DNA of 13,333 nucleotides from Armatimonadota bacterium (GCA_037446215.1 JBBIJB010000062.1:1-13333), one strand, 5' to 3'. Positions 1 to 13,333 are shown, numbered from the stretch's first letter. Notes: a model not told the origin generated them from the sequence alone. Numbers and translations: made by a program.

Positions 1-30
1 TATGACCAGCTTCCGTGCATCTACCTTCAT
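1..30 (-). CDS. N-terminus of the next gene (MKVDARKLVI...), probably an exported protein; OmpH/Skp would fit the synteny but cannot be shown
   Basis: GGGGAGGG RBS followed by ATG at 30; basic then hydrophobic residues typical of a signal peptide; the frame runs off the window. Confidence 0.6.
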   Translation of the reverse strand, partial: MKVDARKLVI

Positions 31-44
31 CGCATACCCTCCCC

Positions 45-79
45 AGCGACCTGCCGTGTCCGCCACGAGCGACCTGCCG
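45..79. repeat. Exact 12-bp direct repeat AGCGACCTGCCG x2 (23-bp period)
   Basis: Copies at 45-56 and 68-79, between the putative promoter and the RBS of the next gene. Confidence 0.7.
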
Positions 80-144: not shown

Positions 145-170
145 CTGAGGCCCATAGGAGGCGGCCTCAG
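145..170 (-). terminator. 8-bp hairpin overlapping the stop codon, possible weak terminator
   Basis: CTGAGGCC (145-152) / GGCCTCAG (163-170); followed on the minus strand by CCGGUGUUUG, only a weak U tract. Confidence 0.4.
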
Positions 171-1435
171 AGGTTGCTCACCATGCGCAGCCAGACATAC
201 CCCCGGGAGGTCCCGACCGCCTCCCACGAGAGGAACTCGTTCATCCTGTACGTGACCGCTCCTTCGATCTCTCCGCTCTGCGGGGAGTAGGCGCCGCGCA
301 GCGTGAGGTCGGGCGAGAGCCGGTAGACGATGAACGGCTCCGCGCCCTCTCCGCTGAGCCGGCTGAGCACGCCCACCGACAGGTGGGTGCCTAGTTCCAG
401 CCTCACGCCCAGGGCCCAGCGCCACGCGAGGCTGGACGGGACCAGCGTCATCTCGACGAAGGGCTCCAGAGATCCGAATGCCCGGCCCACCTGGGCCCGG
501 ACGTCGGCGGGCGGGGCGTCGGCCCCGAAGTTCAGCCTGGCCTCCAGACGTGCCCGGTAGAGCGTTGACTCCGCGAGCAGCGTCAGGTTCGTCTGCTCCG
601 CCACCCTCAGCGTCGGACGAGCGACGATGCCGTACTCGATTGCCGGGGGATAGGCCTTCAGCCGCTCGGCGATCATCGCTTCCAGCTTCGCGCGGTGCGC
701 GGCGGCAAAGGCGACGGGCAGCCCCCTCAGCGGCTCGGCCATCGAGATCGCCTGAGGCGTGTGGCCGTCCAGCAGGAGCAGCGGCACCGAGCTCGACCTG
801 AACCTGACCCCGATGTCCCGGATGACCAGCGGATCCTTCGCGGTCACGCTTACGGCGAGCGCGCCCGGAGGATCGCCCGACAGGCGGGCGGCCGCGGTGA
901 AGCCGGGAGCCGCGGCCTCCACGAGCTCCCGAGCCCTGCTCTCCACCACGGGGAGGGCCCACTCAAGGGCGTCGAGCGGCAGCCTCACGAGCAGGCCTCG
1001 CATCTGTGGTATGGACGGCTCCAGGACCGCGGCGACGAGGGGCCGCGCCTCGGGGTGGATCCCCTGATAGGCAAAGGTGACCGGCAGCTCGCCCAGTACC
1101 GGGTGGCGCGGCTGGAGTGCTACCGAGACCGCCGTGACCGCTCCCGCGGAGAACCGTATGGCCGCGACCGTGTATCCCCACACCACGCGGTTCACGACGT
1201 CCCGAAGAACCCCTGCCAGTGCCGTCTCCTGCCTCGCGACGAGCTCGATCTCCCTGCCGACGAGCAGGCGCTCTCCCGCGGCGGCGATCGTCTCCGCGAC
1301 GCGGCGGACCACCAGAGGGTGGGGTTCCCCGCCCTCGAACGAGATGCGGATCTCCACGCGCCGCACCGGCTCGGCGGCGCGCGTGGGCACAGCGGTTCCG
1401 AGCAGCATGACGACAAGCAGCGCCGGAACCAGCAC
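167..1435 (-). CDS. Uncharacterised exported/outer membrane protein: three POTRA-like repeats plus a C-terminal beta-strand-rich domain
   Basis: 422-aa ORF 35 nt after the bamA stop, with natural protein composition. Signal-peptide-like N-terminus (…TAVPTRA/AE), three ~88-aa beta-alpha-alpha-beta-beta units, about 10 amphipathic strands ending YVWLRMVSNL. Start is uncertain (possibly CTG at 1498). Confidence 0.8.
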   Translation of the reverse strand: MLVPALLVVMLLGTAVPTRAAEPVRRVEIRISFEGGEPHPLVVRRVAETIAAAGERLLVGREIELVARQETALAGVLRDVVNRVVWGYTVAAIRFSAGAVTAVSVALQPRHPVLGELPVTFAYQGIHPEARPLVAAVLEPSIPQMRGLLVRLPLDALEWALPVVESRARELVEAAAPGFTAAARLSGDPPGALAVSVTAKDPLVIRDIGVRFRSSSVPLLLLDGHTPQAISMAEPLRGLPVAFAAAHRAKLEAMIAERLKAYPPAIEYGIVARPTLRVAEQTNLTLLAESTLYRARLEARLNFGADAPPADVRAQVGRAFGSLEPFVEMTLVPSSLAWRWALGVRLELGTHLSVGVLSRLSGEGAEPFIVYRLSPDLTLRGAYSPQSGEIEGAVTYRMNEFLSWEAVGTSRGYVWLRMVSNL

Positions 1436-3348: not shown

Positions 3349-3350
3349 CG

Positions 3351-3418
3351 TCTTCCTCCTTAGGAGAAGAGAGCGGCCGCTGAGCCCCGCTCTTCGCCCC
3401 GGCAGTGAGGCCGGGCGC
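3351..3418 (-). promoter_or_regulatory. Structured 5' leader of bamA with an RBS-sequestering hairpin
   Basis: Minus strand UCUUCUCC-UAA-GGAGGAAGA (3351-3370) pairs over the SD; further stems at ~3370-3393 (AGAGCGG/CCGCUCU) and ~3398-3415 (CCCGGC/GCCGGG). Confidence 0.5.
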
Positions 3419-3486
3419 GGAGCCAGTCTATCCCAGCAGCACCTGCCAAGGGTATCACCCGGATCTCGCGGTACGCAAGCCCGCGG

Positions 3487-4158
3487 CTACTGACCGGCCG
3501 ACCTCCGCAGGGAGCGTTCCGCGGCCAGCACCAGGTCGATCACGTCGGCCTCGCTCAGCAGCGGGGCCTGCGCGGCTGACGGCTGCGGCGCGGCCGGCAC
3601 GGGCGCCGGCGCGGGGACGGCTCCTGCCGGAGCGTGCGGCGCAACCGCTGTCGCCTTCAGGATCGGGGCGGGACCCGGAGGGCGCGCGGCCTCGGTGAGC
3701 GCCCGTGCCGCGGCCGGCGGCGAAACCGCGGCCCTCGGGGCGTAGACGATTACCCGGACCTTTGGCGCCTGCGGAGTCGGGGCTTGCGCCGTCACCATCT
3801 TGAGCACGGACCCGCTCCCGCCCTCCAGCCGCACTACCGCCGGGGCACCATCGCCGACTTTGGCAAGGGGCGCTCGGAGGTGCGGCAGCGGGAGCAGCAG
3901 CAAGGCGGCCACGCCGGCCGCCAGGAAGAGCGCGGCCAGTGGGAGCGCGTAGCGCGGTGCGTCTTGCGGGGATCCTGCGTCGCTCGATCCCGAAGCCGCC
4001 AGGCTCTCTTCCCTGGCCCGCGCCACCTCCGCCCCGGCTAGCAGCAGGGTCAGCGCGCTCTTGCCGGGATCGCCGCTCTCAAGCTGATGCCTGGCACGAT
4101 CCAGCCACCTCTCGGCCAGCTCGACTCGCTCAACCAGCTTTTCGGGTCGCTCATTCAT
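3487..4158 (-). CDS. Hypothetical single-pass membrane protein (candidate anti-sigma factor)
   Basis: ATG at 4158 behind GAGGGA, 27 nt after the sigma stop. Charged helical N-terminus, one hydrophobic segment (YALPLAALFLAAGVAALLLLPLP), Pro/Ala-rich linker, C-terminal amphipathic helix LLSEADVIDLVLAAERSLRRS. Confidence 0.75.
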   Translation of the reverse strand: MNERPEKLVERVELAERWLDRARHQLESGDPGKSALTLLLAGAEVARAREESLAASGSSDAGSPQDAPRYALPLAALFLAAGVAALLLLPLPHLRAPLAKVGDGAPAVVRLEGGSGSVLKMVTAQAPTPQAPKVRVIVYAPRAAVSPPAAARALTEAARPPGPAPILKATAVAPHAPAGAVPAPAPVPAAPQPSAAQAPLLSEADVIDLVLAAERSLRRSAGQ

Positions 4159-4185
4159 GGAAGATCCCTCACCCACGTCACAGTC

Positions 4186-4869
4186 CTAATATCCGGAGGC
4201 GTGCCGTGGCTGGTGCATCGGCTCCAGGCCCAGGATCGTCCTGAGGCGGGTGGTCGCCTGCTTCTGCAGCCTGTAGAAGTGGGACAGGCTGATGTGGAGC
4301 TCGCGGGCGATCGTGCGGGCTTCCCTGGAAGCAACCACCGCCTCCATGACGGCCCTCTCGCGGGGCGGCAGCCGCCGGATCGCGGCGAGGGCGGACTCGA
4401 CCACCGAGCGGTCCTCGACGCCCCCTATCTCGGCCGCGGCGGCGGGATCGGCAAGGGATGCCAGGGGCGACAGGTCTTCCGCGGTGCCGATAACCTGGTC
4501 GAGCGAAACCTCAACCTTTACGCGATCCAGCGCGTTGAGAACGCGCCCCCTTATCCGATAGGTGGCGAAGGTAGGGAAGCGAACCTGCCGGCCCGGGTCG
4601 AAGCGCTCGACGGCCTCGATGAGCCCGACGGCTCCCTCCTGGATCAAGTCCATCAGGAGGGGCTCCGGGGGCCTCATCTGCATCACGATCTTGAAAACGA
4701 GCGGCTGGTAGGCCTCGATCAGCCGCAGCCGGCTCTCCGCGCTGCCGGCCAGCCTGTATTCGCCCCAGAGGGCGGCCTCCTGCTCGGGGCGGAGCAGCTC
4801 AACCTTCTGCAGCTCTCGAAGGTAGTCGGCGAGTGACGCAGGGGTTCCGGCGCGGCGCCAGCGCATCAT
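4186..4869 (-). CDS. RNA polymerase sigma-70 family factor, group 3-like (FliA/WhiG/SigD-type region 2)
   Basis: Region 1.2-like LADYLRELQKVELLRPEQE; region 2 DLIQEGAVGLIEAVERFDPGRQVRFPTFATYRIRG; region 4 LPPRERAV...IARELHISLSHFYRLQKQATTRLR. Start could be 4869 or 4866. Confidence 0.93.
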   Translation of the reverse strand: MMRWRRAGTPASLADYLRELQKVELLRPEQEAALWGEYRLAGSAESRLRLIEAYQPLVFKIVMQMRPPEPLLMDLIQEGAVGLIEAVERFDPGRQVRFPTFATYRIRGRVLNALDRVKVEVSLDQVIGTAEDLSPLASLADPAAAAEIGGVEDRSVVESALAAIRRLPPRERAVMEAVVASREARTIARELHISLSHFYRLQKQATTRLRTILGLEPMHQPRHASGY

Positions 4870-4875
4870 CCTCTG

Positions 4876-4902
4876 CTTCTACTCACGGGGGCGATCTCCT
4901 GT
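4876..4902 (-). promoter_or_regulatory. Candidate SigH-like promoter (AGGA-N17-GAA) upstream of the sigma gene
   Basis: Minus strand ACAGGA GATCGCCCCCGTGAGTA GAAG, with the same spacing as Bacillus SigH promoters (AGGA-N17-GAAT). Confidence 0.4.
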
Positions 4903-4947
4903 GGGAGTAAGACCGACAATCGGAGAGACGGCACCGCTCTTAGGGCA

Positions 4948-7900
4948 TCAGAACCGCGCGGTGTACCAGAGGACCGCCTCGCGGAAGCCCGCGGAGTCTA
5001 TCCGGAGCGAGAACTGCCACTGCCTTGCGAACCGGTACTCCAGCGCCCAGAGGTAGCGCGTCTTCTCCTCGAAGGTCGTCGTCAGCGTGAGGTAGAGCTC
5101 CGGGAACAGCGCCTTTCCCAGTCGCAGGGCCAGCGGCCCCTTGAAGTCGTACTCGACCACGAACTCGCTCAGCCCTATCGCCTTCCCGAGAGCCAGGCTG
5201 ATCTGCCCGAACAGGATCCTGCCGAGCTCGGTCCCGATCGCTCCGGCCACGTCGCCGCCAAGCAACCGGGTTATGCTGGCCTGCCGTCCCAGCAGCCCCA
5301 CGATCTCGGCCCTGGGGAGATCGGGGTCGGAGCGAAGGTCCAGCGTTAGGGCATCGGGCGGTGTGCCGCGGACCGTGAGAAACACCTGCGTGGCGCCCAC
5401 CCTGGTCTCGGCGGTGGCTGCGACCGTCGGGTAGATCCCCATGTGCGGAGAGAAGACCGCGGTTCCCTCGCGTAGGTCGAAGGAGGTGCCCAGCGCGACG
5501 ATCGTCCCCTGCTGCGCCGCGATGCTCCCTTCCAGCGTGGGGCTGCGCAGCGTTCCCACCAACTCCACGGCTCCACCCGGCCGGATGTCGAGCTTGAACC
5601 CGCCGACCCTGGCCGACAGGTTGCTGCCCGCTTCCAGCGACAGCCCCCGGAAGGCGAGCCTGGAGGAGGCGGCCGGCGATGCGCCCGTGCCGGGGGAGAC
5701 GATGACCGCGCCGTCGGCGAGGAGGAGGTGCCCCTCCACCGTCACGGGTCGGCGTCCGTCCGCCAGGCTCCCACGGAGCTTCAGCGTGCCGGTGGCGTGA
5801 AGGTCTATCATGGGGGGGACCACCACCCTCGCGCTTGTCGCGCGGAGGGAGAGCGGTGCCTCGTCGGAGATGCTGAGCGCGAGCCCGCTCGTGGGGTGCG
5901 CAACGACGCGGGCCGCACCCTCGAGCCTGACCGTGCCCGCGCCCATCCTGGCGCTGCCCTCGGCCACCCGGATCGTGGAGTCCTCGAAGCGAACGTCGAG
6001 CCTGAGGGACTCGATCGGCGTCTGGACGCCCCGTAGCCGGAGCAGACCGTCCTGGATCCTTATGCCGCCTGTCAGATGGGGAGACGCCACGGTGCCGTCG
6101 ATCAGCAGGGCGCCCTCGACCGCCCCCCTCCCCTCCACTATCTGATCCGAGGCAAGCCGCAGGAGGCCGAGGTTCACGTCGGCGAGCGTGAGGCGAAGAT
6201 CGATCGGGCGCCGCTCGTCGAAGCGAAGGAGCGCCGGGTTGAAGGGAAGGCTCCCGACGGCCCGGAGCTTGTGGCCGTCCTGCACGAGCAGGGCGTGCTG
6301 GATCTGCAGCAGTCCATCCTTGTAGAACGCGTTCGCGATGAGCGCGTCGAAGGTGGCCCCGGCAATCCCGCCCTTGGTGACATCGAGGGCAAAACCGATC
6401 TCCGGAGCGGCCAGCGTCCCTCCCATCTGCGTGGTGAAGTTGAGCCGGCCGACCAGCGGCCGTCGCAGGCGCATGGCGGACCTCAACAGGTCCATGTCCA
6501 GGTCGCTGCCGCCGACCTCTATCTGGCTCTCGCCCCTCAGGTTCAGCCGGCCGGTCGCCGCGACACGGCCGGTCGCCGGCAGTATCTCGAAGCTCTCGAT
6601 CGATACGGTCCCTTCTCGGAGCGCCAGGTTCACCCGTCCCCCGAGGAGCGGATAGTCCCCGAGGCGCCCGCTGTCCATCCGAAGGTCGATCCTGGCCGAC
6701 GGGTTCGCGATGGGGCCGACGGCTGAGAGCTCACCGGAGATCCGCCCCTCTACGGGCACACCGGGCCTGATGTTTCCGACGGCCAGAAGCGTCGAGATGC
6801 GGCCCTCCTCGGCGGTCAGGCTCAGGTTGATCGGGTGAGACGCTGCCAGCGAGATCTCCCCGGCCAGGCGGTACCGCTCGTCCCCTGCGCGCAGCGATAG
6901 GGGTTCGAGGCGCAGCGTCCGTGCCTCGAACCGGGCCTGGACCGACGCCTCGTCGAATCGCCGTCCGTTCACAACGAGATCCGGGGAGACCGCGCTCAGC
7001 GCGATCGAAGGCGACTCCGGGCGGCCGGTGATCCGGCCGGTGATCTCCACCCGGCCCTCCAGCCCGACAGGGCTTCCTCCGACCACCGCTATGTCACGAA
7101 GGTGGATGGAGCTGCCCGAGAGGCTCAGCCTGAGACCGGCCCGCCTGTCGTATGTGCCGGCGACGCCGAGGAGGGAGCCGCCGGTGCGCAGATTGGAGTC
7201 GTCCACTGCCAGGACAGCACCGTCCCAGCGGAACACGGCCTCTGCCCTCTCGATGGGCTGCCCGAACGCCGCGCCGTCGCGCACCGTCAGGCTTCCCGAC
7301 GCGGTGGGCCGGGCAGGGGTGCCTCCGACCGCCACCCGACCCTCAACGGTGCCGGAGAGCGCCTCGGGCAGCCCGAGCAGCCGGCCGAGCGTGGAGACCG
7401 AGCCACGATCGAGGCTGACGTCGAGAGCCAGGCGTGATGAGGGCCGGAGTGGGATCGTCCCCGAGATCTGGAACCGGGAGAAGCCCTGGCGCAGAGCCGC
7501 GCTTTCGAGCACCAGGCCGCTCCGACCGGCACGCAGTGAGCTCCTTGCCGAGTCGATCGGGAGGTCGCCGAGACGCCCTCCGAAGAGATGGACCTCACCG
7601 GCGAGGGCGGGATCCGCGATCGATCCCGACACGGTTCCCGAGAACCCTACGCGTCCGGTCGGAGCGCCGAACCCGGCCGGAAGCGGCAGCGCCGCCAGGT
7701 CGATCTCGCCTGCCTCCACCCGAAGCCCCAGCCCGCCCGGACCGGTCAGCCTTCCGGCCGCGACGGCCCAGGCCGCGCCGCGCCTGAGCCTCAGATCGTG
7801 AAGCAGCAGGCCGCTCCGGCTCGAGGTGAAGGTCGCCGTGGCCGTATCGAACGCCTCGCCGGCCAGACGGGCATCGGAGGCGACCACCATGCCCGTCACC

Positions 7901-9336
7901 GACAGCCCGCTGGGGGTCCTGAGCAGGGCAACCGCCCCGTCCAGCCGCCCGGCCACCCGGGGCAAAGACGCGCCCGACGCCGCCGCCACCGTCGCGGCAT
8001 CGGCATCGTCGAACCTCAGGGTGAGGAACTGGTGGCCCGCGGCCAGGCTTCCCCAGGCGCTGCCCGAGAGTGTCGCCCCCTCGAGTTGACCACTGAATCT
8101 GTCGAGGCTGAAAGCTCCCCCCAACAGCGAGAACTCGGCGGCTATGCCCTCGAAGCCGTAGCCGTCTATGCGGCCGCGGGCGGTGGCGAGACGCCCCTCG
8201 ATCTCGGGAGACCGAAGGGAGCCCACGATGCGCACGTCTCCGGAGGCGACCCCGGCCAGCCGGTGGGCCGCGCTGGGGAAGAGGAGCCTCGCGAGCATCC
8301 TGAGGTCTACGCCCTTCGAGCGCGCCACTATGTCTCCGCTGGGCTCTCGAGCCAGGACGACCTCCCCGGCCACCTCCAGGGGCGAGCCGTTCAGTCGTCC
8401 TGTCAGGCCCTGCGAACGCAGCCGCCGGCCTAAGACGCGGAGGTCCCCGGTGACGCCGTCGACGACGATGCGCTGCGCCGGCACCGAGGCACGCCCTCCC
8501 CTCACCTTGATCAGCCCGAAGACGTCTGTGGTCGATCGGCCGGCGCGCCGGATGGTCAGGATGTGGATCGCCGCGTCGAAACGGCCGGCCGAGATGACGA
8601 ACCGCGGCGTGTTGAAGAGGTAGTGCCCCCAGGCGGCCGCGTCGCTCCCCATAACGGCGAGGTCAAGGTCCAGGATCCTGGTTGGGAGGTGGTATGCCCC
8701 GCGCACCTCCACGGGCTCCCTGGCTCCGCCCCGCTCCTCGACCGCGGCGCCCTGGAACTCGATCCTCCCGGCCGTACCGAAGTCGGCCGAGCCGGAGAGG
8801 CCGAGCAGGTGCGCTTCGAAGCTGTCCGGGGCCAGTCTGCGGTGGTCCGAGAACCTCACCACCCCGCCCTTGACGACCACGCTGCCGCGGAACGCGCCCG
8901 CCGCCTGTGGTCCCGCGGTGCGGGAGAGGAGTGAGGTCACGTTCCAGACCCCGGCGGGGTCGCGGCTCAGGGTGAGGACGGGATCTTCCAGGATGACCCG
9001 CTCGATGCCGCCTCCAACCCCGCGCCTTGACAACGCCTCCCTCGCGAGGCGCAGCAGGTCGGCGCGCAGGGTGATTCTACGCGCGACCAGCAGGGGGCTG
9101 GAGGAGCCGGGCAAATCGGCGAGCACGACGTCCTCCAGCACGAGGCCGCTGCGTAGCCCGCCATGGACGCGGGCCACCTCGACCTTGCGCCCGAGCCCCG
9201 CGGAGAGGACAACGGCGGTCAGGTCAGCGATCCGCGAGGAGAGCGACACGACGGCCCATGCCGCGGCCCCGGCCGTTACGGCCGCCGCGACAACTATCGC
9301 TATCGATGTCGTCAGTCGACGCCTGCCCGACCGCAA
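4948..9336 (-). CDS. tamB: Translocation and assembly module TamB (AsmA-like, DUF490 C-terminus)
   Basis: 1462 aa; TTG start behind AGGAGGAGAGG; N-terminal membrane anchor; many Gly-rich amphipathic beta repeats with G-T/S-x-x-x-P-x-L-x-G motifs; DUF490-like LDLRSDPDLPRAEIVGLL; ends in amphipathic strands ...WYTARF; close to an Omp85 gene. Confidence 0.9.
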   Translation of the reverse strand: MRSGRRRLTTSIAIVVAAAVTAGAAAWAVVSLSSRIADLTAVVLSAGLGRKVEVARVHGGLRSGLVLEDVVLADLPGSSSPLLVARRITLRADLLRLAREALSRRGVGGGIERVILEDPVLTLSRDPAGVWNVTSLLSRTAGPQAAGAFRGSVVVKGGVVRFSDHRRLAPDSFEAHLLGLSGSADFGTAGRIEFQGAAVEERGGAREPVEVRGAYHLPTRILDLDLAVMGSDAAAWGHYLFNTPRFVISAGRFDAAIHILTIRRAGRSTTDVFGLIKVRGGRASVPAQRIVVDGVTGDLRVLGRRLRSQGLTGRLNGSPLEVAGEVVLAREPSGDIVARSKGVDLRMLARLLFPSAAHRLAGVASGDVRIVGSLRSPEIEGRLATARGRIDGYGFEGIAAEFSLLGGAFSLDRFSGQLEGATLSGSAWGSLAAGHQFLTLRFDDADAATVAAASGASLPRVAGRLDGAVALLRTPSGLSVTGMVVASDARLAGEAFDTATATFTSSRSGLLLHDLRLRRGAAWAVAAGRLTGPGGLGLRVEAGEIDLAALPLPAGFGAPTGRVGFSGTVSGSIADPALAGEVHLFGGRLGDLPIDSARSSLRAGRSGLVLESAALRQGFSRFQISGTIPLRPSSRLALDVSLDRGSVSTLGRLLGLPEALSGTVEGRVAVGGTPARPTASGSLTVRDGAAFGQPIERAEAVFRWDGAVLAVDDSNLRTGGSLLGVAGTYDRRAGLRLSLSGSSIHLRDIAVVGGSPVGLEGRVEITGRITGRPESPSIALSAVSPDLVVNGRRFDEASVQARFEARTLRLEPLSLRAGDERYRLAGEISLAASHPINLSLTAEEGRISTLLAVGNIRPGVPVEGRISGELSAVGPIANPSARIDLRMDSGRLGDYPLLGGRVNLALREGTVSIESFEILPATGRVAATGRLNLRGESQIEVGGSDLDMDLLRSAMRLRRPLVGRLNFTTQMGGTLAAPEIGFALDVTKGGIAGATFDALIANAFYKDGLLQIQHALLVQDGHKLRAVGSLPFNPALLRFDERRPIDLRLTLADVNLGLLRLASDQIVEGRGAVEGALLIDGTVASPHLTGGIRIQDGLLRLRGVQTPIESLRLDVRFEDSTIRVAEGSARMGAGTVRLEGAARVVAHPTSGLALSISDEAPLSLRATSARVVVPPMIDLHATGTLKLRGSLADGRRPVTVEGHLLLADGAVIVSPGTGASPAASSRLAFRGLSLEAGSNLSARVGGFKLDIRPGGAVELVGTLRSPTLEGSIAAQQGTIVALGTSFDLREGTAVFSPHMGIYPTVAATAETRVGATQVFLTVRGTPPDALTLDLRSDPDLPRAEIVGLLGRQASITRLLGGDVAGAIGTELGRILFGQISLALGKAIGLSEFVVEYDFKGPLALRLGKALFPELYLTLTTTFEEKTRYLWALEYRFARQWQFSLRIDSAGFREAVLWYTARF

Positions 9337-9388
9337 GGACCTCTCCTCCTACCGGCAGAGCGCCCTTCTCGCCTGCTGGCGCGGATGC

Positions 9389-11173
9389 CTATCGCACTAC
9401 GATGGGTATCCGCTCAGACCCCTGAATCACCCAGTCGGTCCGCGCGGCGCGCAGGGCCTGCACGTCGAACTGCGTGAAGTCGGTCTGCGTGGTCGGAAGC
9501 CCGAAGGGCAGGATCCTGACCAGGATATCGGTGTTCCGACCGAAGTTCTCGAATATCGCGAGCGCGTCTTCCAGGTCGCCTATTCCCCAGGGCTCGGGCT
9601 CCGAGGAGAGTGCCCTGGCGAGCTTGGCCTCGACCGGGACCTCGGGCTCGTCGATCCCGGCCGACCGCACGACAACCACCGCCGGGCCCCTGGGGAAGTT
9701 GCCCGGGACGTGAACCTCGATGTTCCTGGTGACCCGCCTCTCGGCAAGGTGAGGTTGCATGGTCACCCGCAGGCGGAGCGTCCCGCCCGGCCTGATCTCC
9801 CGCGACTCGATCTCCACCCCCACGATCACGGCGGTCTTCCGAGCGCGCGAGATCGACGTCTCGACGGTGAGATCGAGCGGCTCCAAGCGGCGCAGCTCGT
9901 TGTAGAAAGCGAGATCGATCGCGTCGATTATCTCCAGGACGGAGGCGGTGGCGACGTCGCGCGTGCTGAAGAAGACGTTCTCACGCACGATAGGGGAGGG
10001 CAGTCCTTTTGCCCGGAGCGTGGTCCGCACCGTGGCGGTTCCCTCTCCGCCGCCCTGGCTGCGGGCCCGCTCGATGGCCGAGAGCGCCACGAGCGGCGCA
10101 AACAGCCGGGCCATGTCCCGCCGCCGGACCATCTGGGCCCCCAACTGGACCCGGTCGCCCGACTCCTCGTCGGTCACCATGACCCGGATGTTGAACAGGC
10201 GCGGCAGCTGCCCCAGGGTGCCGGCAATCGCGCCGCTCCTGTCCTGGTCGACTATCCCTATCATAGCCCCCAGGTTGCCCACCTTGAACGGGCGCGGCAT
10301 CGTGCGCACCACGGTGACGATCTCCGAGGCCGTCATGACGTACTCCACGTCGCCTAGGTTGTCCCAGGGGTGCCCGCACACCAGCACCCTGTTCCCGACG
10401 CGGACGGTCACGGTGCATATCCCCCCGAAGTCGATGTCGCCCCGGACCTGCTGTATCCCCACTGAGCTGCCCGCGGCAACCGGGGCCGCGGCGAAGTCGC
10501 CCCGACCGCCGTGGCCCTGGAGGAGCTCGTGGCCCATCGGCTTCAGCATGTCAGAGAGGATGCGGGAGGCGCGCGGCGTCAGCCCGCGCGCGAACGCGGC
10601 GACCGCGGGCGTCGCCACCGCGAGCCCGTCGGACCGCATCCGTGCCAGCAGCGCGACCTGTTGCGGGGTTGCGGCGATCGCGAACCTGTCGAACTCCCCC
10701 CCGCCGATAGCGACCGGCCGGGAAGAGCGGTAGAGCGGCATGCCCACTCCTCCGGACCGGCGCCGGTCCAGGAGCTTCAACATCTCCTCGATCGGCGTCG
10801 CCAAGGCGATGTCGCGCTTGGGCGCCTGCCAGGTGAATGAGGCGCTCAGCGCGCCGATCAACCTTCCGCCGATGTACATTGGGCTTCCGCTCATTCCGGC
10901 GGCGGTGCCGCCGGTCTGCTCGGCCAGCGGGCCGAACATCCGGAACAGGATGAGACGGTCGACTCCTACCGGTCCTCCTCCTGCCTGCAGGATGTCCACG
11001 ATCTCGAACTGGAACTCCTCGATGCGCTGGCCCTGGACCACCGTCCGCCCTACGCCGCGCATCCCCGGCCGTATCTCGGAGAGCGTCATGATCGAGGGGC
11101 CCTGCTGCGGGGCGCCGGCCACCGGGGCTGCCAGCAGGAGCACCAAGATGAGAACCCTGAGGCGACTGGCCAC
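9389..11173 (-). CDS. Exported SpoIVB peptidase S55 domain-containing serine protease
   Basis: Start reassigned to GTG at 11173 behind an AGGGAGGGAG RBS; signal peptide MASRLRVLILVLLLAAPVAGA. SpoIVB-type motifs AAGMSGSPMYIGGRLIGALS (GMSGSP at 10880-10897) and CTVT...LVCGHP (GHP at 10367-10375); beta-rich C-terminal domain. Confidence 0.88.
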   Translation of the reverse strand: MASRLRVLILVLLLAAPVAGAPQQGPSIMTLSEIRPGMRGVGRTVVQGQRIEEFQFEIVDILQAGGGPVGVDRLILFRMFGPLAEQTGGTAAGMSGSPMYIGGRLIGALSASFTWQAPKRDIALATPIEEMLKLLDRRRSGGVGMPLYRSSRPVAIGGGEFDRFAIAATPQQVALLARMRSDGLAVATPAVAAFARGLTPRASRILSDMLKPMGHELLQGHGGRGDFAAAPVAAGSSVGIQQVRGDIDFGGICTVTVRVGNRVLVCGHPWDNLGDVEYVMTASEIVTVVRTMPRPFKVGNLGAMIGIVDQDRSGAIAGTLGQLPRLFNIRVMVTDEESGDRVQLGAQMVRRRDMARLFAPLVALSAIERARSQGGGEGTATVRTTLRAKGLPSPIVRENVFFSTRDVATASVLEIIDAIDLAFYNELRRLEPLDLTVETSISRARKTAVIVGVEIESREIRPGGTLRLRVTMQPHLAERRVTRNIEVHVPGNFPRGPAVVVVRSAGIDEPEVPVEAKLARALSSEPEPWGIGDLEDALAIFENFGRNTDILVRILPFGLPTTQTDFTQFDVQALRAARTDWVIQGSERIPIVVR

Positions 11174-11654: not shown

Positions 11655-11663
11655 ATTATACCA
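11655..11663 (-). promoter_or_regulatory. Extended -10 housekeeping sigma promoter element (TGnTATAAT)
   Basis: Minus strand reads GGATGGTATAATTAG in the intergenic gap after wecB, a perfect TGnTATAAT in otherwise GC-rich DNA. No clear -35 element. Confidence 0.7.
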
Positions 11664-11695: not shown

Positions 11696-12859
11696 TCAGG
11701 GGGCGAACTCCCCAGGCCGCTCCTGCGGGAACCCGAGGAAGCGGGCGACCTCCGCCGCGATCCTCGAGGCGGCGTGCCCGTCCCCGTAGGGGCTGCGGGC
11801 GGTGGCCATCGCCGCGTGGGCCGCTGGGTCCCGGAGGAGGCGCGCGGCTCGCTCGACGATCCTCTCCCGCGACGTTCCGACCACCTCGACCACGCCCGCC
11901 TCGACTCCCTCAGGCCGCTCGGTGACCTCTCGCAGGACCAGCACCGGCACCCCGAGGGAGGGAGCCTCCTCCTGGACGCCTCCTGAGTCAGTGAGGATGA
12001 TGTGCGCCGCCGCCATCAGACGGACGAAGGGCCCGTAGTCAGGGGGGTCTATCAGGTGCGCCCTGGCGTGCCCTCCGAGGACCTCCTCGGCCACGCCGCG
12101 CACGGCCGGGTTGGGGTGGACCGAGAAGACCACGACGGTGTCGGGAAACCTCTCAAGCAGGTCGCGCAGCGCCAGATAGACCTGCCGGAGGGGTTCGCCC
12201 CAGCTCTCCCTTCGGTGGGTGGTGACCACCAGGAGGCGCCGACCCTCCAGAGGGGGCAAGCCTGCGGGCAGCCCCACCTCGGGCCTGCCCGCGACGTCGA
12301 GCAGCGCGTCGATTACCGTGTTTCCGGTCACGAGGACCCTATCGGCGGGCACGCCTTCCCCCAGCAGGTTGTCCCTGGCGCCGGGCGTGGGCGGGAAGTG
12401 CAGGTCGGCCAGCACCGAGGTGAGGCGCCGGTTGATCTCCTCGGGGAAGGGCCGATACCTGTCGTGTGTGCGCAGCCCGGCCTCCACGTGGCCGACCGGG
12501 ATCCGGAAGTAGAAGGCCGACAGAGCGCCGAGCATCGTGGAGAGGGCGTCTCCCTGGACCAGGACCATCGCGGGGTGCATCTCCGAGAGCACTGGGGCAA
12601 GCCCGGAGAGCGCCCTCGTGGAGATGTCGAACAGTGACTGCTCGTGCAGCATTATGTCCAGGTCGCGGTCCGGGGTGATCGCGAAGAGCCGCAGCACCTG
12701 GTCCAGCATCTCGCGGTGCTGGCCTGTAACGACGATCTGGGGCCGGAGATACGGACTCTCCCTCAGGCGCGCCGCCACCGGGGCCATCTTGACGGCCTCC
12801 GGCCGGGTGCCGAATATCAGCATGATCGGAGCGCGGGGATCCGCCCCGGGGCCGCTCAC
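11696..12859 (-). CDS. wecB: UDP-N-acetylglucosamine 2-epimerase (non-hydrolysing)
   Basis: Motifs IFGTRPEAVKMAP, TGQHREML, VQGD, GHVEAGLRT, PFPEEINR, TGNTVIDAL, TDSGGVQEEAPSLG, TERPEG, PYGDGHA. The GTG start overlaps the upstream stop (GTGA, 12856-12859). Confidence 0.97.
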   Translation of the reverse strand: MSGPGADPRAPIMLIFGTRPEAVKMAPVAARLRESPYLRPQIVVTGQHREMLDQVLRLFAITPDRDLDIMLHEQSLFDISTRALSGLAPVLSEMHPAMVLVQGDALSTMLGALSAFYFRIPVGHVEAGLRTHDRYRPFPEEINRRLTSVLADLHFPPTPGARDNLLGEGVPADRVLVTGNTVIDALLDVAGRPEVGLPAGLPPLEGRRLLVVTTHRRESWGEPLRQVYLALRDLLERFPDTVVVFSVHPNPAVRGVAEEVLGGHARAHLIDPPDYGPFVRLMAAAHIILTDSGGVQEEAPSLGVPVLVLREVTERPEGVEAGVVEVVGTSRERIVERAARLLRDPAAHAAMATARSPYGDGHAASRIAAEVARFLGFPQERPGEFAP

Positions 12860-13333
12860 CTCGGCAGCAGCCCCATCCGCCTGGCCGTCACCAGGAGCAC
12901 CCCGGCGATCACGCCTAGCGTCCAGATCGACGCGGAGCGGTTCACACCGGCGAGCGCCAGTGCCCCGAACCCGAGCAGGGCGCTGATCATGTAGAGGATG
13001 AAGACGGTCTGCCGCTGCGTGAGGCCCCTGTCGAGGAGCCTGTGGTGGAGGTGCCCTCGATCGGGAAGGAAGATGGCACGACCGCTCCTGAACCGCCTGA
13101 GTATGGCGAACGCCGTATCGGCTATCGGCACTCCCAGCGCGAGGATCGGCACCGCGAGCGATATCATCGTGTAGGACTTGTAGAGGCCCATGACCGAGAG
13201 TCCCCCCAGCACGTAGCCGAGGAACATCGATCCGGAGTCGCCCATGAAGATGCGCGCGGGGTTGAAGTTGTGGCGCAGGAACCCGAGCGCGCTCCCCACC
13301 AGCGCCGCGGCGAGGAGCACCGCGGCCGCGTCG
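12856..13333 (-). CDS. tagO: MraY/WecA/TagO family (glycosyltransferase family 4) undecaprenyl-phosphate GlcNAc-1-phosphate transferase, C-terminal part; 5' end lies outside the window
   Basis: Hydrophobic multi-pass protein with the family motifs HNFNPARIFMGDSGSMFLG and DRGHLHHRLL. The frame stays open to the window edge and the gene is directly upstream of wecB. Confidence 0.92.
   Translation of the reverse strand, partial: DAAAVLLAAALVGSALGFLRHNFNPARIFMGDSGSMFLGYVLGGLSVMGLYKSYTMISLAVPILALGVPIADTAFAILRRFRSGRAIFLPDRGHLHHRLLDRGLTQRQTVFILYMISALLGFGALALAGVNRSASIWTLGVIAGVLLVTARRMGLLPR

Follow-up and report, generated by a model that had tools for sequence, protein, structure and literature searches.

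A putative sigma/anti-sigma module between tamB and bamA in an outer-membrane biogenesis cluster of the candidate phylum CSP1-3

In Escherichia coli, envelope stress is handled by the sigmaE-RseA-DegS-RseP pathway, in which the sigma factor and its anti-sigma factor are encoded in an autoregulated operon. The gene of the site-2 protease, rseP, is found directly upstream of bamA and, therefore, there is precedent for a signalling gene that adjoins bamA. Here we describe a stretch of 13,333 nucleotides from a genome labelled Armatimonadota bacterium (GCA_037446215.1, JBBIJB010000062.1:1-13333), which is referred to as the window, and in which a sigma-70 family factor and a single-pass membrane protein are encoded between tamB and bamA, downstream of the gene for an exported S55-like peptidase. 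The host, an uncultivated soil and hot-spring bacterium, belongs to the candidate phylum CSP1-3 (Sysuimicrobiota), of which there is no isolate (PMC11604079). The reading that we favor, with a probability of roughly one half, is that the window holds an outer-membrane biogenesis cluster of CSP1-3 into which a lineage-specific sigma/anti-sigma module has been placed between tamB and bamA, and that the S55-like peptidase is not specifically tied to this module.

The module shares three properties with sigmaE-RseA. The candidate anti-sigma factor is a single-pass inner-membrane protein with a cytoplasmic N-terminus predicted to bind sigma and a periplasmic part that may serve in sensing, the two genes form a putative autoregulated operon, and the pair is linked to outer-membrane protein assembly. 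It differs from the E. coli pathway in that the sigma factor is not a typical extracytoplasmic function (ECF) factor, since it has a region 1.2-like N-terminus and finds its best partial matches in RpoS, WhiG and RpoH, and in that the candidate anti-sigma factor has no RseA-like or other known domain. Furthermore, the locus contains no gene for a PDZ protease, RseB or RseP, and the module sits inside tamB-bamA.

For the S55-like peptidase, the closest characterized protein is SpoIVB of Bacillus subtilis, which, according to the accessible part of PMC12502668, has a two-barrel protease domain in which His236 comes before Ser378, and a PDZ domain. Both proteins are exported serine peptidases, and they share homology in the half of the protease domain that bears the Ser. 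Unlike SpoIVB, the S55-like protein has no PDZ domain, carries Ser95 before His268, and has approximately 270 additional C-terminal residues. The genes of the sporulation checkpoint, SpoIVFA, SpoIVFB and BofA, are all missing from the window locus and, in contrast to sigmaK, the sequence of the window sigma gives no indication that the factor is made as a pro-protein.

A parallel for the gene order is the envelope locus of diderm Firmicutes. In the available part of the work of Poppleton 2017 (PMC5491611), the Veillonella protein Vpar_0521, which contains a SpoIVB domain and is of unknown role, is encoded a few genes away from TamB (Vpar_0526) and BamA (Vpar_0527), was recovered with the outer-membrane fraction, and is reported to be conserved among diderm Firmicutes. 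This agrees with the similar gene order in diderm Firmicutes that had been mentioned in a preliminary description of the window. In L052, a diderm Firmicutes locus from our own set (see below), the S55-like, TamB, BamA and OmpH genes are directly adjacent, while Vpar_0521 is likened to the S55-like protein through its published description. In contrast with the window, no sigma or anti-sigma factor is reported for this locus in the accessible portions of PMC5491611 and PMC5007114; the word 'sigma' does not occur in the main text of Antunes 2016 (PMC5007114), and 'sigma', 'outer membrane', 'BamA' and 'diderm' are each absent from the main text of the Sysuimicrobiota paper. Within a limited literature collection, without supplementary files, no paper was found in which tamB-bamA of Terrabacteria is linked with a sigma/anti-sigma pair. 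The proximity of an S55-like gene to tamB-bamA is already known from Veillonella, and the inserted sigma/anti-sigma module appears to be undescribed.

The conservation of the arrangement was evaluated with a scan in which each species was represented by one genome and an alignment of the S55-like protein served as the query; it gave 79 loci (designated by L-numbers). The CSP1-3 (Candidatus Sysuimicrobiota) loci are the first 48 together with L050 and L056, and their genomes are those of Ca. Fervidifonticultor, Calidihabitans, Geohabitans, Sysuimicrobium, 'Armatimonadetes bacterium CSP1-3' and 'Bacillati bacterium ANGP1'; the relatives of the sigma, single-pass and S55-like proteins come mostly from metagenome-assembled genomes (MAGs) labelled Armatimonadota. 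The sigma gene is the next gene after TamB in 32 of the 33 CSP1-3 loci in which TamB is complete and the downstream sequence extends for 700 nt or more. With 1400 nt or more, sigma and then the single-pass gene are observed in 27 of 28 loci and, with 3400 nt or more, the full series of sigma, single-pass gene and BamA in all 23 loci. Given that these loci keep the order, it cannot be attributed to chance.

Two loci are informative about the origin of the pair. In L048 (Ca. Sysuimicrobium calidum) the stop codon of TamB overlaps the start of BamA, and the S55-like gene is present with neither a sigma nor a single-pass gene detected by Pfam. In L052, from a Halanaerobiaceae MAG, the order is murA-like, mreB, S55-like, TamB, BamA and OmpH, and the sigma pair is again absent. 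The absence of both genes in both loci indicates that they were gained or lost together. In a tree of 38 TamB rows, with L052 as the root, L048 is the sister of the other 36 CSP1-3 rows, with a support of 98 in the Shimodaira-Hasegawa-like approximate likelihood ratio test (SH-aLRT), and a single gain or loss of the pair suffices on this tree. The simplest reading is that of an old S55-tamB-bamA core, with the sigma pair inserted within CSP1-3; the pair may instead have been lost in the Sysuimicrobium line.

The gap between the stop codon of sigma and the start of the single-pass gene is 27 nt. The single-pass protein contains a cytoplasmic helical hairpin, a transmembrane segment and a C-terminal helix (Table 1), with a short conserved motif immediately outside the membrane and a variable, Pro/Ala-rich periplasmic linker. 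It matches no Pfam or NCBIfam family, and none of 28 members of its alignment matches a known anti-sigma domain family (zf-HC2, RskA, RsgI_N, RseA_N and the like) in Pfam at E ≤ 1. A first search retrieved 32 relatives, and a profile search 388 representatives at E ≤ 1e-3, 70 of which reach E ≤ 1e-30; an anti-sigma factor of this kind would likely belong to a new family. Shorter relatives (170-250 aa) share the hairpin and the transmembrane segment, and a similar terminal helix is seen in four of the 12 shorter relatives that were printed (P0375, P0388, P0402 and P0408), as well as in the longer P0416. A search of the ESM Atlas returned 'hypothetical protein, commonest Bacillota', which is a lead only. 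In the database protein P0371, a truncated sigma factor (regions 1.2-2 and part of the linker) is joined to the hairpin and transmembrane segment of the single-pass protein; this fusion probably arose from a frameshift or a misassembly of the neighbouring genes in a genome of the ANGP1 type.

The interaction between the two proteins was modelled with the sigma factor (31-row alignment) and residues 1-70 of the single-pass protein (28-row alignment). The complex obtained a score of 0.77 (0.82, 0.76 and 0.77 in the individual runs) versus 0.07 for the best of three controls, with at least 67% of the contacts in agreement between runs and a predicted local distance difference test (pLDDT) value of at least 74 for the partner. 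In calibration, 116 of 157 solved complexes attained the mark for this score, as did 2 of 215 mismatched pairs, counts that are only rough for this model because the calibration was made without user-supplied alignments. The modelled interface is formed by residues 11-23, 44-55 and 73-85 of sigma and residues 13-18 and 31-47 of the single-pass protein, which overlap the invariant columns of both alignments, and it places the hairpin on sigma regions 1.2, 2.1 and 2.2. Regions 2.1-2.2 are the main core-polymerase-binding face of sigma factors, and many anti-sigma factors act by covering this face. The model supports, but does not show, that the single-pass protein binds sigma through its cytoplasmic N-terminus. 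Together, the linkage, the joint presence or absence and the complex model support an anti-sigma role, and the single-pass protein is a plausible membrane anti-sigma factor of the adjacent sigma, as had been proposed from the sequence at the outset.

The same protein could also be an envelope scaffold or an assembly factor of the TamB-BamA machinery whose gene follows that of sigma by accident, in which case the complex model would be a false pass. Its most conserved part is indeed the periplasmic C-terminal helix and not the N-terminus alone, known anti-sigma families find no match among its members, and a few mismatched pairs do reach the mark in a calibration made under other conditions of input. 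Nonetheless, the N-terminal hairpin is invariant at the modelled contacts, the gene is present only where sigma is, and all three controls stay at or below 0.07. For these reasons, a scaffold role is considered very unlikely.

The sigma factor itself consists of a region 1.2-like N-terminus, region 2, a linker of about 45 residues, region 4 and a conserved C-terminal tail, HQPxxxxGY; no Pfam match to the region 3 model was found in the protein. The only model that it passes is that of the superfamily, TIGR02937 (81.3 bits versus a cut-off of 42.9). Among the best 25 of its 53 NCBIfam matches, all the named sigma equivalogs are under their cut-offs. The best partial matches are RpoS, WhiG, RpoH, FliA and SigB/F/G, all far under their cut-offs, with residues 13-116 matching the RpoS, WhiG, RpoH and SigB/F/G models at E values of 1e-18 to 1e-21, and the only full-length matches, SigK and SigE, are likewise far under theirs. 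The assignment to the group-3 or non-ECF sigma factors made in the preliminary description is therefore partly sustained: regions 1.2-2 resemble those of non-ECF factors, while neither a region 3 match nor a named equivalog was reached. The protein has 671 relatives, of which the top 120 are 55-85% identical to it; some are labelled 'sporulation-specific sigma factor' in one source, and one, P0099, is encoded on a contig of 3.15 Mb.

Upstream of the sigma gene, a bipartite promoter-like motif is common to spacers that are otherwise divergent. In its loose form, it is present in 28 of 35 regions upstream of sigma (34 loci and the window), and in 100 of 7000 (1.4%) random 210-nt windows taken from the same loci. 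The motif was found upstream of the single-pass gene in none of 33 cases, and upstream of bamA in none of 26. A weight-matrix scan of 1.55 Mb on both strands gave scores of at least 19 at the 28 seed sites and at only two others, both on the minus strand (19.6 in L004 and 19.5 in L048). At a score of at least 14, there are 61 matches, 28 seeds and 33 non-seed sites, versus 9-17 in shuffled sets; several of the non-seed matches are conserved coding sequence, and the scan revealed no further copies before genes of the cluster. The motif is a putative autoregulated promoter of the sigma gene.

The motif resembles the promoters of sigmaH, whose consensus has a spacer of 11-12 nt, the same as in the CSP1-3 sites. 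When compared with the sigmaH consensus RNAGGAWWW / RNNGAATWW given in the accessible part of PMC8510167, the AGGA (-35) and GAA (-10) cores are invariant in all 28 sites, and the R position is a purine in 26 of 28 sites at -35 and in 18 of 28 at -10, where R is read three bases before GAA (column 1 of block b2). The sites differ from sigmaH promoters in that the W positions are G/C-rich, and the CSP1-3 sigma differs from sigmaH in that the SigH equivalog is not among its best 25 NCBIfam matches. To our knowledge, Bacillus sigmaH has no dedicated membrane anti-sigma factor.

The likeness to sigmaH raises the possibility that the sigma pair is real but a passenger in the cluster, and that it regulates something unrelated to the outer membrane, such as a stationary-phase or developmental programme comparable to that of Bacillus sigmaH. 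This would agree with the sporulation-type name given to some relatives, with the lack of a second strong motif site before any gene of the cluster, and with a separate sigmaA-like promoter for bamA: the element TTGCGn...TAnnnT was seen by eye in nine of 24 spacers between the single-pass gene and bamA, the window being represented in Table 1. In the other 15 spacers, which are 55-140 nt long, no such promoter was seen by eye, and bamA must be transcribed from upstream in these loci. Furthermore, 32 of 33 loci retain sigma between tamB and bamA, in lineages that diverge by more than 50% in TamB, a constancy that would hardly be expected if the arrangement were not under selection. A mere passenger is therefore regarded as unlikely.

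A different type of promoter precedes the peptidase. In the spacer between wecB and a small open reading frame (ORF) upstream of the S55-like gene, a TGgTATAAT box of the extended -10, sigmaA type is found; TGnTANNNT occurs at the same position in 24 of 56 rows (some loci being listed twice), and most of the other rows have GGTATAAT or GCATAAT, as judged by eye. This box is the probable start of a transcription unit comprising the small ORF, S55 and tamB. It was also observed that the perfect TGnTATAAT box, in a genome of 70% G+C, is separated from the start codon of the small ORF by only 12-20 nt in several relatives; such close spacing suggests that transcripts with a short leader, or with none, may be common in CSP1-3. 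Altogether, the spacers suggest three units: the small ORF, S55 and tamB under a housekeeping-type promoter, sigma and anti-sigma under the sigmaH-like motif, and bamA with the following gene for a 422-aa protein, under their own promoter or by read-through. A generic scan of the window for sigma-70 promoters and terminators found one promoter-like site versus 0.6 expected and two terminator-like sites versus 2.9 expected. Two GC-rich inverted repeats at approximately 3385-3425, in the spacer between the single-pass gene and bamA (3349-3486, minus strand), could be a terminator or attenuator. The tamB-sigma spacers of L022 (~16352-16430) and L027 (~16280-16380) are filled by long purine-rich and then pyrimidine-rich inverted repeats, made of GGGAAAAG-type units and their complement.

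Several observations weigh against the reading of a sigma/anti-sigma module that acts on this cluster. With respect to its origin, a single CSP1-3 genome and a single, very distant outgroup show the absence of the pair, L048 and L052 join in the TamB tree by branches that are both long, and L026 was coded as sigma-bearing in that tree although its contig ends at TamB. With respect to the interaction, the complex score is a measure of model confidence, to which likeness to solved sigma/anti-sigma complexes of other families may add. With respect to the promoter, that the sigma factor reads the motif upstream of its gene is something we infer from position alone. The copy in the window scores 20.3, the lowest but one of the 28 seeds, and has an A in place of the consensus C in its -10 part. 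Its GAA ends at 4877, 7 nt before the ATG at 4869, which implies either a leaderless transcript or a weakened site. The start codon that most loci use is aligned with residue 12 of the window sigma and comes 39-61 nt after the motif; in the window, the codon of this residue is TCA, and the ORF begins at the upstream ATG. There is also only one strong motif site per locus of approximately 20 kb and, therefore, the regulon may lie elsewhere. Finally, given the sigmaA-like promoter of bamA and the inverted repeats that precede it, read-through into bamA is unproven.

The S55-like protein has a signal-peptide-like N-terminus, and its mature form starts about 10 residues before a Ser half-barrel (GMSGSP), which is followed by an insert of about 110 aa, a beta-rich domain and C-terminal beta/alpha domains. 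The match to PF05580 reaches 26.8 bits versus a cut-off of 25, and covers only positions 114-195 of the 210 of the hidden Markov model (HMM), at residues 30-114, that is, the Ser-bearing half of the domain. The solved structure of SpoIVB (PDB 9lnf) is matched by profile at residues 35-119 only (E 1.7e-7), and the score with the SpoIVB equivalog TIGR02860 is 28.7 bits versus a cut-off of 305. In an alignment of 44 sequences from several phyla, few columns are invariant: AAGMSGSP (with Ser95), Gly107, Ala108, Pro127, Gly235, Gly245, His268, Gly274, Lys297, Gly306, Asp311 and Gly463. Ser95 is N-terminal to His268 and Asp311 in this alignment, and no invariant His or Asp precedes it. No PDZ family was matched in Pfam, even at E ≤ 1, and Pfam revealed no sensor domain of known type. 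Considering the partial S55 domain, the missing PDZ domain, the order of Ser and His and the low TIGR02860 score, the protein is S55-like but, judged by its sequence, no SpoIVB. A reversed Ser-His order for SpoIVB was not found described in the titles and abstracts of the limited literature collection.

Structure prediction gives some indication of how the two halves are arranged. A first AlphaFold2 model, built from 27 close sequences, had a pLDDT of 62, with residues 214-326 below 50, and its top Foldseek match was 9lnf (E 7e-4, 109 columns). A second model, from the 44 diverse sequences, reached a pLDDT of 86 and a predicted template modelling score (pTM) of 0.84, with confident strands at residues 237-320. 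With this model at full length, Foldseek matched 9lnf with a probability of 1.00 over 121 columns and the tobacco etch virus (TEV) protease with 0.90; there was no other credible match, the remaining ones being mostly of low probability and multidomain. When fragments of the His region were searched separately, five of 25 matched HMM positions 12-101 of PF05580 weakly, with E values of 0.0037-0.16, all below the cut-off. The fragment from the window gave no protease match among PDB sequences, and SpoIVB was not recovered there either with a profile built from 33 such fragments, at E ≤ 10. The His-bearing region may be the other barrel of a permuted chymotrypsin-type fold, in which Ser, His and Asp would come together, and the protein is probably an active and probably permuted S55-like peptidase. 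In 16 of 48 CSP1-3 loci (L004-L015, L030, L037, L042 and L043; for example L004:11808-13568), a second S55-like paralogue, approximately 37-39% identical to that of the window, lies in tandem between the first copy and tamB; the window has a single copy.

Outside CSP1-3, S55-like genes are found in other company. In the Synergistota MAGs of L054 (9983-14544) and L076 (9425-13990), the genes that come next after the S55-like one are mlaE, that of an ABC ATPase and mlaD, and in L053 a gene with an MlaD domain is two genes away. This neighbourhood suggests that the family is tied to lipid transport rather than to sigma signalling, and the S55-like peptidase probably acts on envelope or lipid-transport proteins. 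A Pfam check of two upstream and three downstream neighbours was made for 22 distant loci (103 proteins; ten short or duplicate loci were left out), and among these neighbours no outer-membrane or sigma genes were found in the other distant loci, from Actinomycetota, Coriobacteriia, Patescibacteria, Phycisphaerae, Opitutaceae and others. Likewise, profile HMMs of sigma and of the single-pass protein matched none of the ORFs of L048-L079 at E ≤ 1. A peptide-chain release factor gene precedes the S55-like gene in four Synergistaceae/Synergistia loci (L058, L067, L071 and L076).

These results bear on the full cascade that the preliminary description had proposed. According to it, the S55-like peptidase would make the site-1 cut in the anti-sigma factor, an unlinked site-2 protease would free sigma, and the expression of outer-membrane genes would be adjusted. 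Peptidase, TamB, sigma pair and BamA are indeed adjacent in 27 of the 28 CSP1-3 loci with enough flank, the GMSGSP serine, His268 and Asp311 are kept across the 44 sequences, the signal peptide brings the peptidase to the same compartment as the outer part of the anti-sigma factor, and the membrane-proximal motif and invariant C-terminal helix of the latter could be recognised. Nonetheless, S55-like genes adjoin tamB-bamA in L048 and L052, which lack the pair, are placed beside mlaEFD in Synergistota, and occur also in monoderm lineages and otherwise unrelated contexts, and no pair lies near the S55-like genes of L048-L079. No site-2 protease gene was found in the window or the examined flanks. 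The S55-like gene is older than the pair, more broadly distributed and not dependent on it; its product lacks a sensor domain, and it is apparently transcribed with tamB under a housekeeping-type promoter, apart from the motif of sigma. The peptidase is therefore not regarded as the trigger, and the full cascade, for which it would have been co-opted as a site-1 protease within CSP1-3, is distinctly improbable. The sigma/anti-sigma half of the proposal is supported by linkage, joint presence or absence and the complex model, and the half in which the protease takes the first step is not; in the same way, common inheritance of the three genes holds for sigma and the single-pass protein, while the S55-like gene goes its own way.

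For the sigma/anti-sigma module as we read it, the following mechanism can be proposed. The hairpin of the single-pass protein would cover regions 1.2, 2.1 and 2.2 of sigma, as in the model, and thereby hold sigma inactive at the inner membrane. A periplasmic cue would act on the outer part of the single-pass protein, whose C-terminal helix is invariant. The freed sigma would then read its own sigmaH-like promoter and raise the level of the pair and, in loci without an intervening terminator, that of bamA and the 422-aa gene as well. The S55-like peptidase would be part of the older unit of small ORF, S55 and tamB, with its housekeeping-type promoter. A more specific version is tentative and rather doubtful: the module would be a switch of a new family, wired into the tamB-bamA operon and independent of sigmaE/RseA, in which the C-terminal helix, as an amphipathic helix, reports the state of TamB and BamA, either by docking or through cleavage by the adjacent permuted S55 peptidase, and the freed sigma feeds back on bamA via the sigmaH-like promoter.

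The features of the window are collected in Table 1. The credible genes, identified by ORF calling, are all on the minus strand of the window, which has a G+C content of about 70%, in the order wecB, small exported ORF, S55-like peptidase, TamB, sigma, single-pass protein, BamA and 422-aa protein. The five genes named in the preliminary description (S55 protease, tamB, sigma, single-pass gene and bamA) were thus all found, co-oriented and adjacent, and the span 3487..11173 given there runs exactly from the stop codon of the single-pass gene to the GTG start of the S55 gene; the small exported ORF had been overlooked, as had the restriction of the S55 match to the Ser-bearing half of the domain, and BamA falls just outside that span. 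An Rfam scan of the window gave no matches.

Table 1. Genes, protein segments, residues and promoter-like elements of the 13,333-nt window.
Feature	Position	Strand	Remarks
wecB (UDP-GlcNAc 2-epimerase)	11696..13333	-	5' end beyond window; TIGR00236 E 3.8e-133, 444 bits vs cut-off 210; PF02350
TGgTATAAT box	11655..11663	-	extended -10, sigmaA type; upstream of small ORF
Small exported protein, 103 aa	11277..11588	-	signal peptide; biotin/lipoyl-like barrel domain, PF00364
Exported S55-like serine peptidase, 594 aa	9389..11173	-	GTG start; partial PF05580
Ser95 of S55-like protein	10889-10891	-	in GMSGSP
His268 of S55-like protein	10370-10372	-	invariant; beta-rich domain
Asp311 of S55-like protein	10241-10243	-	invariant; beta-rich domain
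TamB, 1462 aa	4948..9336	-	PF04357
Bipartite promoter-like motif	4874..4904	-	CAGGA(G/C)(A/T)T, 11-12 nt, GT(C/A)GAA; sigmaH-like; upstream of sigma
Sigma-70 family factor, 227 aa	4186..4869	-	region 2 E 8.9e-17; region 4 E 4.3e-4 (Pfam)
Single-pass membrane protein, 223 aa	3487..4158	-	candidate anti-sigma; ATG start; stop codon at 3487 end
Cytoplasmic helical hairpin of single-pass protein	residues ~8-60	-	invariant pattern AExWLxRARxQ...G...LTLLLAEAE..RARE
Transmembrane segment of single-pass protein	residues ~70-92, 3883-3951	-	
C-terminal helix of single-pass protein	3490-3561	-	LLSxADVIDLVLAAERSLRR; invariant in alignment
SigmaA-like promoter	3449..3478	-	TTGCGT, 18-nt spacer, TGaTACCCT; upstream of bamA
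BamA/Omp85, 625 aa	1471..3348	-	TTG start after AAGGAGGA; PF01103
Exported 422-aa protein	167..1435	-	no family; conserved 3' of bamA

TamB is identified by PF04357 (140.5 bits versus a cut-off of 22.4, E 1.1e-40, residues 1132-1462), and has a hydrophobic membrane anchor at its N-terminus, which is DUF748-like. BamA matches PF01103 with 112.9 bits (E 3e-32) and POTRA (PF07244) in three stretches; with 188 bits, it is under the cut-off of 297 of the BamA equivalog TIGR03303. The 103-aa exported protein matches PF00364 weakly but above threshold (E 6e-5, 23.2 bits versus 22.1), and its homologues immediately precede the S55 gene in 49 of the 79 scanned loci, all of CSP1-3 type. Further upstream, a wecB homologue precedes the S55 gene in 46 of 48 CSP1-3 loci, and glmU, prs and a family-4 glycosyltransferase gene are found far upstream in relatives. 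The 422-aa protein matches no Pfam or NCBIfam family; its homologues occur downstream of BamA in CSP1-3 loci, and in L036 its gene is followed by an OmpH/Skp gene. In the ESM Atlas, it was labelled like the single-pass protein ('hypothetical protein, commonest Bacillota') and fell into unnamed clusters, one of them auto-named DUF3570, again a lead only.

How diderms outside the Proteobacteria sense and correct defects of outer-membrane assembly is largely unknown, and a sigma/anti-sigma pair that is fixed between tamB and bamA across a phylum is a concrete candidate for such a circuit. Its anti-sigma factor would define a new family, with 388 representatives at the threshold used. The S55-like family has Ser, His and Asp residues that are invariant across phyla, in an order opposite to that of SpoIVB, and it adjoins TamB-BamA or MlaEFD in three lineages of diderm Terrabacteria. 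If the wired switch outlined above is true, it would be an envelope-homeostasis circuit of diderm Terrabacteria that evolved independently of sigmaE/RseA.

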